DNA from: Escherichia phage T4_ev151
Strand: one strand, 5' to 3'
Length of the DNA: 64,000 bases
Sequence record: LR597660
Below, piece by piece: positions 35,440-36,660 of this stretch (position 1 is the first letter of the stretch; each line of letters starts with the position of its first letter). The translations under genes and the position numbers were made by a program. The notes beneath the pieces were generated by a model. The model made no database searches and was not told where the DNA came from. It worked only from the letters and a program-made list of their open reading frames with translations.

Positions 35440-35511
35440 TGGCCCTGGGTGGAATTGAACCACCATCTGGCGATTATGAGTCGCTTGCTTGAACCTTCCA
35501 GCTACAGGGCC
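35440..35511 (-). tRNA. tRNA-Ile (anticodon CAT, lysidine-type)
   Basis: Acceptor ggccctg/cagggcc, T-loop ggttcaattcc, anticodon loop cTCATaa; assignment by T4 order. Confidence 0.7.
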
Positions 35512-35517
35512 TTGATA

Positions 35518-35590
35518 TGCTGATTGACGGAATCGAACCGCCGACATCCTCATTACAAGTGAGGTGCTCTACCTACTGAGCTAAATCAGC
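35518..35590 (-). tRNA. tRNA-Thr (anticodon TGT)
   Basis: Acceptor gctgatt/aatcagc, anticodon loop cTTGTaa, T-loop ggttcgattcc. Confidence 0.8.
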
Positions 35591-35597
35591 GAAATTA

Positions 35598-35684
35598 CGG
35601 AGGCGATAGGATTTGAACCTATGAGTCGCCGGAGCGACTGCCGGTTTTCAAGACCGGTGCATTAAACCACTCTGCCACGCCTCC
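35598..35684 (-). tRNA. tRNA-Ser (anticodon TGA), long variable arm
   Basis: 87 nt; acceptor ggaggcg/cgcctcc, anticodon loop cTTGAaa. Confidence 0.8.
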
Positions 35685-35686
35685 AG

Positions 35687-35760
35687 TCTCCGTGGCAGGA
35701 TTTGAACCTACGACATTCTGCTCCCAAAGCAGACGCTCTACCAAACTGAGCTACACGGAG
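35687..35760 (-). tRNA. tRNA-Pro (anticodon TGG)
   Basis: Acceptor ctccgtg/cacggag, anticodon loop cTTTGGGa, T-loop ttcaaat. Confidence 0.8.
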
Positions 35761-35773
35761 TAAATTAAATTTG

Positions 35774-35844
35774 AGCGGATAATGAGAATCGAACTCACAT
35801 CATCAGATTGGAAGTCTGAGGTAATACCATTATACGATATCCGC
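35774..35844 (-). tRNA. tRNA-Gly (anticodon TCC)
   Basis: Acceptor gcggata/tatccgc, anticodon loop cTTCCaa. Confidence 0.8.
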
Positions 35845-35850
35845 AAACTT

Positions 35851-35937
35851 TGGTACGAGAAGTGGGACTCGAACCCACAAGGAAATCATTCCGCAGCATT
35901 TTAAGTGCTGTGCCTTTACCAATTTGACCATTCTCGC
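35851..35937 (-). tRNA. tRNA-Leu (anticodon TAA), long variable arm, CCA encoded
   Basis: 87 nt; acceptor gcgagaa/ttctcgt, anticodon loop cTTAAaa. Confidence 0.8.
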
Positions 35938-35943
35938 GCTATA

Positions 35944-36552
35944 TTATTTATTACGTGAAAAAGACTGTTCTATCAATTCTGGACACTTTCGTTCTATCCA
36001 TTTTCTAGCTTTTTGTGGGCTTATACCTATTATTTTAGCAGCTTTACTAACCCATCCAAATTTAGAATAATCGATTTTAACTAATTCTTCGTAAATTTCA
36101 TCAGTTAAAATCTTTTCATTAATATTTACCAGTAAATGATATAATTTATTATCATTAGCAATTTTAATGAATCTTTTATAGTTTCCGCCTTTACTTAAAC
36201 CTAATGAAGTAATTGCAGATGATATAGTAGCCGAATTTAATAGTGCGTTTAAAATTTCTTCATCACTAACATTATAACGCTTTCTATTATTTTTAATATT
36301 TTTACCAGCAAAAGTATCAGTTTGCGAATGGCAATTTGGGCATAATAATCTTAAATTTGATTTAAGATGATTTTTGTTATTTCCATCAATATGGTCTAAT
36401 TGTAGAACAATATGCTTATTTTGCCATTTTGAAATTTTACAAATTGCACACTCATATGGAAAAATATTTTCTTTTATTATTTTGTCTTTCAGCTTTCCTG
36501 TACTAAAATTTGGATGTTTTCCTTCAAAAATTTCAGCTAATTTAGTATCCAT
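35944..36552 (-). CDS. HNH homing endonuclease
   Basis: HNH motif LQLDHIDGNNKNHLKSNLRLLCPNCHSQTD; ATG 36552 (track TTG 36576); stop 6 nt from tRNA-Leu 5' end. Confidence 0.75.
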   Translation of the reverse strand: MDTKLAEIFEGKHPNFSTGKLKDKIIKENIFPYECAICKISKWQNKHIVLQLDHIDGNNKNHLKSNLRLLCPNCHSQTDTFAGKNIKNNRKRYNVSDEEILNALLNSATISSAITSLGLSKGGNYKRFIKIANDNKLYHLLVNINEKILTDEIYEELVKIDYSKFGWVSKAAKIIGISPQKARKWIERKCPELIEQSFSRNK

Positions 36553-36634
36553 AATATGATTCCCAATTATTAACAAAGGCTCTCAAACAAGAACCCTTGA
36601 TGATAGAGGGTATTAATCAGTGCGGTATGAGTTA

Positions 36635-36660
36635 ATAATAACAAATAATTCTTAAAGCAT
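36635..36660 (-). promoter_or_regulatory. Putative MotA-dependent middle promoter driving the HNH gene and tRNA array
   Basis: Minus strand TGCTTTA, 12 nt, TATTAT; early-type -10 TGATTAATACCC just downstream. Confidence 0.4.

Follow-up and report, generated by a model that had tools for sequence, protein, structure and literature searches.

Which element occupies the place of tRNA-Gln in the tRNA operon of Escherichia phage T4_ev151, and how did it come to stand there? The question arises from a stretch of 64,000 nt of this phage (sequence record LR597660), hereafter called the window, in which an open reading frame (ORF) for an HNH endonuclease lies just upstream of tRNA-Leu at 35944-36552 on the minus strand. 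In T4 and in e11/2, tRNA-Gln(UUG) is found 1 nt upstream of tRNA-Leu, and no ORF is present at this position. A preliminary description, made from the sequence alone, had suggested that insertion of the endonuclease gene may have displaced tRNA-Gln and that the gene would be co-transcribed with the remaining tRNAs. We found that a short cassette carrying the HNH gene has replaced the body of tRNA-Gln, that the cassette is present at the same site in a minority of T4-type phages, and that relatives of its protein cluster beside tRNA genes in many other phages. The ORF probably encodes a free-standing homing endonuclease, and tRNA-Gln was probably lost as collateral.

Replacement of tRNA-Gln by an HNH cassette

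ARAGORN found no tRNA-Gln anywhere in the 64 kb. A search of positions 33000-38000 with Infernal and the Rfam tRNA model (E ≤ 0.1) returned the same seven tRNAs as ARAGORN and no degenerate eighth. The set and order given in the preliminary description (Leu, Gly, Pro, Ser, Thr, Ile and Arg, as in T4) and its statement that tRNA-Gln is missing from the array are therefore supported by both programs.

Alignment with the HNH-less relatives e11/2 and T4 placed the exchange at base resolution. Colinearity of the window with e11/2 extends from the end of trna.2 across the promoter and leader (100 nt) into tRNA-Gln, where it covers the first 7 nt (TGGGAAT), with one mismatch in all. The alignment diverges after this stub and rejoins at an 'AGC' directly before tRNA-Leu, which in the tRNA-Gln allele consists of the last two bases of tRNA-Gln and the 1-nt spacer. 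What lies between is an inserted cassette of 616 bp (35941-36556, minus strand), made up of the HNH ORF with 4 nt upstream and 3 nt downstream, which takes the place of nt 10-71 (62 nt) of the 73-nt tRNA-Gln. The net gain is 554 bp, and the interval from trna.2 to tRNA-Leu measures 725 nt in the window versus 171 nt in e11/2. The displacement proposed earlier is thus a base-level replacement of nt 10-71 of tRNA-Gln by the HNH cassette, and T4 itself carries tRNA-Gln and no HNH gene at this site.

Both edges of the cassette retain traces of the replaced gene. The first 9 nt of tRNA-Gln remain as a stub, TGGGAATCA (36557-36565, minus strand), which now lies in the 5' untranslated region of the HNH gene, with 4 nt ('TATT') between the stub and the ATG. 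The stub reads TGGGAATTA in Killian, BP32, Pu-Krd-SF5 and Lv5cm, identical to nt 1-9 of intact tRNA-Gln, and that of the window shows one T-to-C change relative to it. At the other edge, a spacer of 6 nt (35938-35943, minus strand) separates the HNH stop codon (35944-35946) from the 5' end of tRNA-Leu at 35937, the distance that the preliminary description had given; its last 3 nt (AGC) are common to the tRNA-Gln allele. The junctions are identical in all 10 other HNH-carrying loci examined (11 such loci in all), and the shared junctions point to one ancestral insertion.

No relocated copy of the tRNA gene was detected by ARAGORN in the window or in the complete genome of the HNH-carrying phage HEMP5, whose HNH protein is 100% identical to that of the window and whose 7 tRNAs all lie in the cluster. 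Likewise, tRNA-Gln was present in 0/10 of the HNH-carrying loci fetched. Phage ACG-C40 has all ten of its tRNAs within the cluster (PMC3347319), and the annotation of its record lists none of the ten as Gln. All of the HNH-less Tequatrovirus loci obtained from IMG/VR (3/3) contain tRNA-Gln.

Distribution among T4-type phages

A tblastn search of the phage collection gave 63 records with at least 95% identity to the HNH protein, all of them T4-type phages of enterobacteria, and the next tier of matches stood at about 35% identity. Megablast with a piece spanning tRNA-Leu, the HNH gene and the promoter matched 525 records, exactly 63 of which (about 12%) were full-length. As this number is the same as that of the records with at least 95% protein identity, all copies are at the same site. 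Coverage in the megablast search fell into two classes, 100% or about 24%. Among the records listed, the HNH-less Tequatrovirus phages have the two flanks about 261 bp apart; those with annotated tRNAs, such as T4, T2, RB6 and RB18, show tRNA-Leu and tRNA-Gln there, and no listed record lacks both tRNA-Gln and the HNH gene. The gene is a presence/absence polymorphism at a fixed site among close relatives. A search of IMG/VR with trna.2 gave 7 loci, too few for association statistics.

Copies of the HNH gene share 97.4-99.7% DNA identity among backgrounds whose neighbouring genes vary widely. Identity to the window in these backgrounds is 82-99.7% for segB, where segB is not absent altogether, 84-99% for trna.3, and 85-100% for tRNA-Pro. 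The flanks most like those of the window are found in phage e11/2 (trna.3 99.5%, trna.4 100%, segB 98.5%), which has no HNH gene. BP32, ACG-C40 and PD112 have flanks that are 83-87% identical or have no segB, yet their HNH gene is 99% identical. The gene occurs in at least four architectures of the tRNA cluster: 7 tRNAs with segB, 8 with segB and Tyr, 9, and 10 without segB. Its distribution is incongruent with the relatedness of the flanks, and the ORF moves horizontally.

Among 11 alleles, third codon positions account for 15 of the changes in the 609 nt of the gene; 3 more are at first positions, two of which are synonymous in Leu codons, and 1 clear change is at a second position (R90K). 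One in-frame 9-nt insertion is also present. The ORF is under purifying selection. An identical HNH protein is listed for T4_ev151 and a51, and the gene is also carried by the BASEL phage Bas37/KarlGJung. In GenBank it is annotated generically as 'HNH endonuclease' or as 'similar to T5 TflIV'. Our search of the literature returned no description of the tRNA-Gln replacement, only GenBank-level annotation and general remarks on HNH genes in tRNA arrays.

Further cassette-like variation was seen around the same operon. HEMP5 shows it at about 4615-5307 of the fetched locus (L007). Killian (L003, 3049-3564) and phiD1 (L011, 2886-3401) carry an additional ORF of 516 nt, placed between trna.2 and the HNH gene, and an HNH-less IMG/VR locus (L015, about 2790-3397) has an extra stretch of about 510 bp between trna.2 and tRNA-Gln.

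The HNH protein and its characterised relatives

The ORF encodes 202 amino acids from an ATG at 36552. A TTG start at 36576, which would give 210 amino acids, was rejected; the homologues begin at a Met aligned with the ATG at 36552. Residues C35, C38, H54, N66, C71, N73, C74 and H75 are invariant in 26-27 homologues. The signature of an HNH (His-Me finger) nuclease is present, with the catalytic His (general base), the structural Asn and the metal-binding His/Asn of the beta-beta-alpha motif, and a four-Cys zinc site. A second conserved block, GW..KA.KIIGI.PQK, lies at the C terminus. The ORF scores 412 bits against PHROG 14736 'HNH endonuclease'. Pfam HNH (PF01844) is matched by 23/26 of the aligned homologues at E ≤ 0.01 (best 1.4e-6), and HNH_3 by 17. 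Pfam and PHROG gave no match to a GIY-YIG motif in the ORF, whereas the neighbouring segB-like ORF does match.

An AlphaFold2 model built from the 26-sequence alignment has a mean predicted local distance difference test score (pLDDT) of 89.7 and a predicted template modelling score (pTM) of 0.50; the low pTM would fit flexible linkers. The model consists of an N-terminal Zn-binding HNH domain (residues ~1-85), with a core of strands 51-54 and 67-70 followed by helix 72-75, and two helical modules resembling helix-turn-helix (HTH) folds (~96-141 and ~151-202). As modelled, a catalytic HNH domain with tandem HTH modules would be the architecture expected of a sequence-specific homing nuclease. 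Local Foldseek matches, with E values of 1-4, were to Cap5, EcoKMcrA, the Gme HNH nickase and ScoMcrA, and further local similarities were to HTH domains of the homeodomain, LuxR and sigma-region-4 kinds. A search of the PDB with the protein sequence returned nothing significant, and the NCBIfam matches, to ZorE and IscB, were weak.

The closest characterised relative is F-TflIV (HegA) of phage T5, with 34.7% identity over 84% of the protein (residues 16-184, E = 5e-15, tblastn). HegA aligns along the full length of the window protein, including both the HNH domain and the C-terminal HTH. The records of ACG-C40 and BP32 label the present gene 'similar to T5 H-N-H endonuclease TflIV'. F-Tfl endonuclease ORFs are located in the tRNA cluster of T5 (PMC2330249). 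The HegA gene directly follows tRNA-Ser and tRNA-Ile in the tRNA region and is on the same strand, and the window gene is likewise co-oriented with its tRNAs. The T5 protein differs in an extra N-terminal helical region of about 70 amino acids, its phage belongs to the family Demerecviridae, and no tRNA-Gln is replaced there. Within this family of HNH proteins, only the T5 enzymes have a known activity.

A second point of comparison is SegB, whose gene is in the same operon and is also free-standing between tRNA genes and transcribed with them. The activity and homing of SegB were shown by experiment; the protein targets a site within tRNA genes, and when it homes the recipient is deprived of tRNA genes, namely Met, Tyr, Asn and Arg in the case of T2L (PMC2330249). 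SegB has a GIY-YIG fold unrelated to HNH, and its site is between Ile and Arg. The free-standing HNH genes of T-even phages (MobA-E and Hef) are sporadic, intergenic and promoter-less, and spread by intronless homing in the Tevenvirinae. They are the same kind of element as the window HNH gene in a different HNH subfamily.

Association of the HNH family with tRNA genes

We examined whether the position beside tRNAs belongs to the whole family. The family counts about 5,500 members in all. The 26 full-length homologues were aligned, the alignment yielded 578 relatives in IMG/VR, and the best 80 were analysed with 2-kb flanks. The mob-like HNH ORF of the window (59341-60153, plus strand, 270 amino acids) was taken through the same pipeline as a control family, again with 80 loci. 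This control ORF has an HH..N..H motif and a tail with Cys-pair, NUMOD and Zn-ribbon features, and is 98% identical to P0121 'HNH endonuclease'; hhalign gives it a probability of 25% against the focal family, with only the Cys-pair regions aligned and the catalytic region not.

A tRNA is present somewhere in the 2-kb flanks at 74/80 focal loci versus 11/80 control loci, and at most 400 nt from the match at 65/80 (81%) versus 8/80 (10%; Fisher p = 8e-21), counts that include related contigs and loci that are not fully independent. Nearly all neighbouring tRNAs of the focal family share the strand of the HNH gene, and 28 of the 80 extended ORFs end at most 30 nt from a same-strand tRNA or slightly overlap one. 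tRNA-Leu accounts for 11 of these 28 abutting downstream tRNAs, versus a background of 12.6% (p = 3e-4). Upstream, tRNA-Gln(UUG) accounts for 3 of the 7 tRNAs that end at most 30 nt away, versus a background of 4.5% (p = 0.003). The tRNA array is the habitat of this HNH family, and an abutting tRNA-Leu, as in the window, is a trait of the family as a whole. Remote homologues sit among tRNAs in the jumbo Salmonella phage SE_PL, the Bacillus phage Chewbecca and the Gordonia phage Sixama.

Metagenomic homologues with 68%, 58% and 57% identity occupy the syntenic site (gp1-57A-57B-trna.x-HNH-tRNAs) in other T4-like lineages. The 68% homologue comes from a Marfavirus-like Klebsiella phage, in which 14 nt separate its start from an intact tRNA-Gln(UUG) upstream. 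Where the HNH-less phage PWKp18 has an 83-nt tRNA after tRNA-Gln, this phage has the HNH homologue instead; PWKp18 is the one record aligned, and the best matches among Marfavirus-like Klebsiella records cover only 89% of that locus. The Marfavirus swap is a second case, independent of that in the window, and the two together make the 3' end of tRNA-Gln a boundary of the cassette in both genera.

Some details of these loci deserve mention. The tRNA-Gln beside the Marfavirus homologue (L028, 2911-2986) differs at about 12 positions from that of the HNH-less allele (L031, 3204-3276). The differences include compensatory changes in the anticodon stem, a G-to-A change in the T loop, a change in the 3' strand of the acceptor stem, and an encoded CCA. 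Such differences could stem from a divergent donor through co-conversion, or they could make the tRNA gene resistant to cleavage. The tRNA replaced in Marfavirus (L031 of PWKp18, 3284-3366) is annotated as tRNA-Asn(GTT); with its 83 nt and long variable arm it is class II-like, which is unusual for tRNA-Asn. ARAGORN also called a 94-nt 'tRNA-Stop' with anticodon TTA, resembling an ochre suppressor, on an IMG/VR T4-like contig (L017, 4080-4173), and tRNAs with a four-base anticodon (TAAA) about 109 nt downstream of the HNH homologue on three contigs of sample 3300045988 (L078-L080).

In mycobacteriophages and mycobacterial plasmids, HNH genes are described as the coding sequence most widespread in tRNA arrays, and it has been proposed that they diversify the tRNA repertoire (Pope et al. 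2014, as relayed in PMC5966550 and PMC6409571). Actinobacteriophage relatives of the window HNH protein, such as that of Sixama, sit in such arrays. The reports on mycobacteriophage and plasmid arrays are at the level of annotation, are not tied to this sequence family, and name no specific tRNA that was replaced.

Promoter and transcription of the operon

The preliminary description placed a MotA-box middle promoter before the HNH gene. The elements are present on the minus strand: a MotA box, TATGCTTTA (36653-36661), 1 nt after the stop codon of trna.2, and a -10 element TATTAT (36635-36640) after a 12-nt spacer. This spacing matches the consensus of MotA-dependent promoters, and transcription would start near 36628. 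The promoter element is 98.9% identical in the HNH-less phages T4 and e11/2. Its conservation there rules out import together with the HNH gene and indicates that this is the native promoter of the tRNA operon. The promoter was correctly recognised, but it does not belong to the HNH gene. According to the passage on the operon in PMC2330249, which relies on Broida & Abelson 1985 and on microarray data, a middle promoter located directly before the tRNA cluster of T4 gives one long precursor of about 1.75 kb that ends after the species I RNA gene.

Neither a promoter nor a terminator of its own is obvious in the cassette; the 4 nt between the stub and the ATG are too few to hold a promoter upstream of the ORF. 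We found no terminator-like site on the minus strand from the promoter to 34336-34313. The first such site is an intrinsic-terminator-like hairpin at 34313-34336 with a 10-bp stem followed by a T run, where a precursor of about 2.3 kb (~36628 to ~34310) likely ends. This length equals the ~1.75 kb of T4 plus the 0.55 kb of the cassette. Because no terminator precedes 34336 and the length agrees with that in T4, co-transcription of the HNH gene with the tRNAs, as proposed in the preliminary description, would be the expected state.

The signals for translation appear weak. The only Shine-Dalgarno-like bases of the HNH ORF are GGGA, which come from the tRNA stub. In the minimum-free-energy fold of the leader, the stub and the Shine-Dalgarno region are paired with upstream leader bases, a weak hint obtained from a single fold with no control. 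Together with the short 3' tail expected after RNase P processing of tRNA-Leu, the weak ribosome-binding site may suggest, with low weight, that the HNH gene is poorly expressed. An effect analogous to that of the processing has been proposed for segB (PMC2330249).

Proposed mechanism and its alternatives

The precise replacement, the fixed-site polymorphism, the incongruent distribution, the purifying selection, the invariant catalytic residues and the tRNA-array habitat of the family favour a homing element. We believe, with a probability of roughly 0.68, that ORF 35944-36552 encodes a free-standing homing endonuclease of the T5 F-TflIV type with an HNH (His-Me finger) domain, that its target lies at or beside the junction of tRNA-Gln and tRNA-Leu, and that tRNA-Gln was lost as collateral. 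We infer cleavage, the location of the target, homing, and the structure and processing of the transcript as follows. Transcripts covering the HNH gene would start at the native MotA-dependent middle promoter, and others would arrive by read-through from upstream. The gene would be the first cistron of the ~2.3 kb precursor, from which the seven tRNAs, segB mRNA and the rnaD/rnaC RNAs would also come. After an RNase P cut at the 5' end of tRNA-Leu, the 3' tail of the HNH message would be only 6 nt long. The weak ribosome-binding site (GGGA) and this short tail would keep HNH expression low, and low expression is usual for homing-type nucleases. When a related HNH-less phage infects the same cell, its allele would be cut or nicked by the enzyme at or near the junction of tRNA-Gln and tRNA-Leu. 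Recombinational repair with the HNH-carrying genome as template would then insert the cassette at the cost of tRNA-Gln. The HNH-carrying genome would itself be immune because the tRNA-Gln half of the target site is gone. Loss of tRNA-Gln would thus be collateral damage of a selfish element.

Several points weigh against this reading. The target site is deduced only from the boundaries of the insertion. T-even genomes are highly mosaic, and ordinary homologous recombination could scatter the cassette with no nuclease activity. The identity of the HNH gene is only modestly above that of its immediate flanks (leader 96-99%, tRNA-Leu 98-100%). No distinct co-conversion haplotype surrounds the cassette, and the flank variants of HNH-carrying loci also occur in HNH-less loci, a comparison with five HNH-less loci that has little power. 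At the level of the protein, the window sequence reaches 17.3 bits against PF01844, below the gathering cut-off of 21.4, and Foldseek found no PDB match at E ≤ 1e-3 to the whole three-domain model. The T5 F-Tfl proteins are reportedly nicking enzymes, so a double-strand cut is not assured.

We weighed three other explanations, all of which are less well supported than homing. The gene might be a passive relic that was inserted once, is now inactive or otherwise employed, and has spread only by ordinary T-even homologous recombination. The mosaic identities of segB, trna.3 and tRNA-Pro across the whole region, the lack of a flank haplotype specific to HNH-carrying loci, and the minority status of the allele (63/525 records) would all agree with this. 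A relic would be expected to collect non-synonymous changes and frameshifts, but the changes seen are almost all synonymous, the ORF is intact in the 11 loci compared and full-length at no less than 95% identity in all 63 records, and all catalytic residues are conserved. In another genus, too, homologues are present only sporadically at the syntenic site. We consider a relic unlikely. A sequence of two events, in which a deletion first removed tRNA-Gln and the HNH gene then inserted into the vacant site, with tRNA-Gln outside the target, appears less probable again. It predicts an intermediate that is missing from the listed Tequatrovirus records, where every record has either tRNA-Gln or the HNH gene; moreover, the Marfavirus case and three IMG/VR loci place a homologue directly after tRNA-Gln(UUG) and so tie that tRNA to the site. 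Still, the boundaries (9 nt kept on the 5' side and 2 nt on the 3' side) give no order of events, and since the family ORFs are most often flush with a downstream tRNA-Leu, the 5' end of tRNA-Leu alone could define the site.

The remaining explanation, that the nuclease serves the phage by attacking competitor or host DNA or by nicking the phage's own DNA, with the operon as a convenient site of expression, is the least probable of the three. SegB, whose gene belongs to this operon, excludes the tRNA region of T2L (PMC2330249), and HNH domains of this kind also occur in defence nucleases, to which the weak fold matches (Cap5, McrA) and weak NCBIfam matches (ZorE, IscB) lead. A generally useful gene, however, would not be missing from 88% of close relatives, and such a role leaves unexplained why 81% of the family adjoin tRNAs in unrelated phages. 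Marker exclusion by cutting a rival allele is, furthermore, the same mechanism as homing.

A broader extension of the homing explanation is possible, and we put it forward tentatively, at somewhat less than even odds. The window gene may belong to a widespread clade of HNH homing endonucleases that use tRNA genes as recognition sites, prefer the point at which tRNA-Gln(UUG) meets a following class II tRNA, for example tRNA-Leu(UAA), hop between unrelated phages, and are a main driver of tRNA gain and loss in phage arrays. If so, the conserved sequence of tRNA genes would let the clade hop among T4-like, T5-like, jumbo, Bacillus and actinobacterial phages, and the loss of tRNA-Gln here and of a tRNA in Marfavirus would be two examples caught in the act.

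The tRNA operon and other features of the window

The window comes from a Tequatrovirus (T4-like) genome and follows the gene order of T4: e.8, rnaC/rnaD, the tRNA cluster, trna.2-4, the ip genes, 57B, 57A and gp1, all on the minus strand. The seven tRNAs, called by both ARAGORN and the Rfam tRNA model, are also on the minus strand. The sub-cluster Leu-Gly-Pro-Ser-Thr-Ile spans 35440-35937, in the same order as in the T4 annotation, and consists of tRNA-Leu(UAA) (35851-35937), tRNA-Gly(UCC) (35773-35844), tRNA-Pro(UGG) (35686-35760), tRNA-Ser(UGA) (35597-35685), tRNA-Thr(UGU) (35518-35590) and tRNA-Ile(CAU) (35440-35511), the last of which ARAGORN labels 'Met' from its anticodon CAT. The seventh, tRNA-Arg(UCU), is at 34653-34729.

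Between Ile and Arg lies a GIY-YIG homing endonuclease gene of the segB type (34733-35398, minus strand), which matches Pfam GIY-YIG and PHROG 314 and is 98.5% identical to the e11/2 gene annotated SegB. The operon thus holds two endonuclease genes, the HNH ORF and this one. The adjoining segment at 34230-34652 on the minus strand is homologous to the rnaD/rnaC region of T4 (species 2 and 1), with 93% identity to the T4 locus over 81% of the segment. No Rfam family matched this segment even at a permissive threshold; the T4 rnaC/rnaD RNAs, although long known, apparently have no model in Rfam 15.

Other variable genes are found in the window. An ORF of 187 amino acids (33655-34218, minus strand; PHROG 2280, function unknown) lies between e.8 and rnaC/rnaD. 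It is found in Killian, KarlGJung and Pu-Krd-SF5 and is absent from T4, e11/2 and others, which marks a variable slot beside the tRNA operon. Farther away, a GIY-YIG-type ORF of 288 amino acids (43639-44505, plus strand) matches TIGR01453 'group I intron endonuclease' weakly and probably represents another seg-like homing gene. With it, the 64-kb window would contain at least four endonuclease genes.

Discussion

Free-standing homing genes of the HNH and GIY-YIG types are already well known in T-even phages, and the present gene itself stands in GenBank under generic names. What the present case adds, modestly, is the clean swap of a gene for a tRNA and the quantitative link between an HNH family and tRNA arrays. 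If the homing explanation holds, the locus offers a clear natural case in which a selfish nuclease gene deletes a functional gene of its carrier. About 12% of the sequenced T4-type phage records with this locus have exchanged tRNA-Gln for the nuclease. With the HNH gene, the T4 tRNA operon that bears segB gains a second, unrelated endonuclease gene, and this small operon may be regarded as a hotspot of intronless homing. The idea can be tested with available phages, as Bas37/KarlGJung carries the HNH gene, and T4 and T2 are HNH-less. Genome annotators should expect 'missing' tRNAs beside such HNH genes.

For the family as a whole, the adjacency to tRNAs at 81% of loci versus 10% in the control, together with the third of relatives that lie flush with the 5' end of a tRNA, among which tRNA-Leu is enriched, suggests that tRNA genes are the habitat of the clade, and they are probably its target as well. 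A tRNA-targeting HNH clade would help to explain the fast turnover of phage tRNA repertoires, and this would bear on the role of phage tRNAs as a counter-defence.

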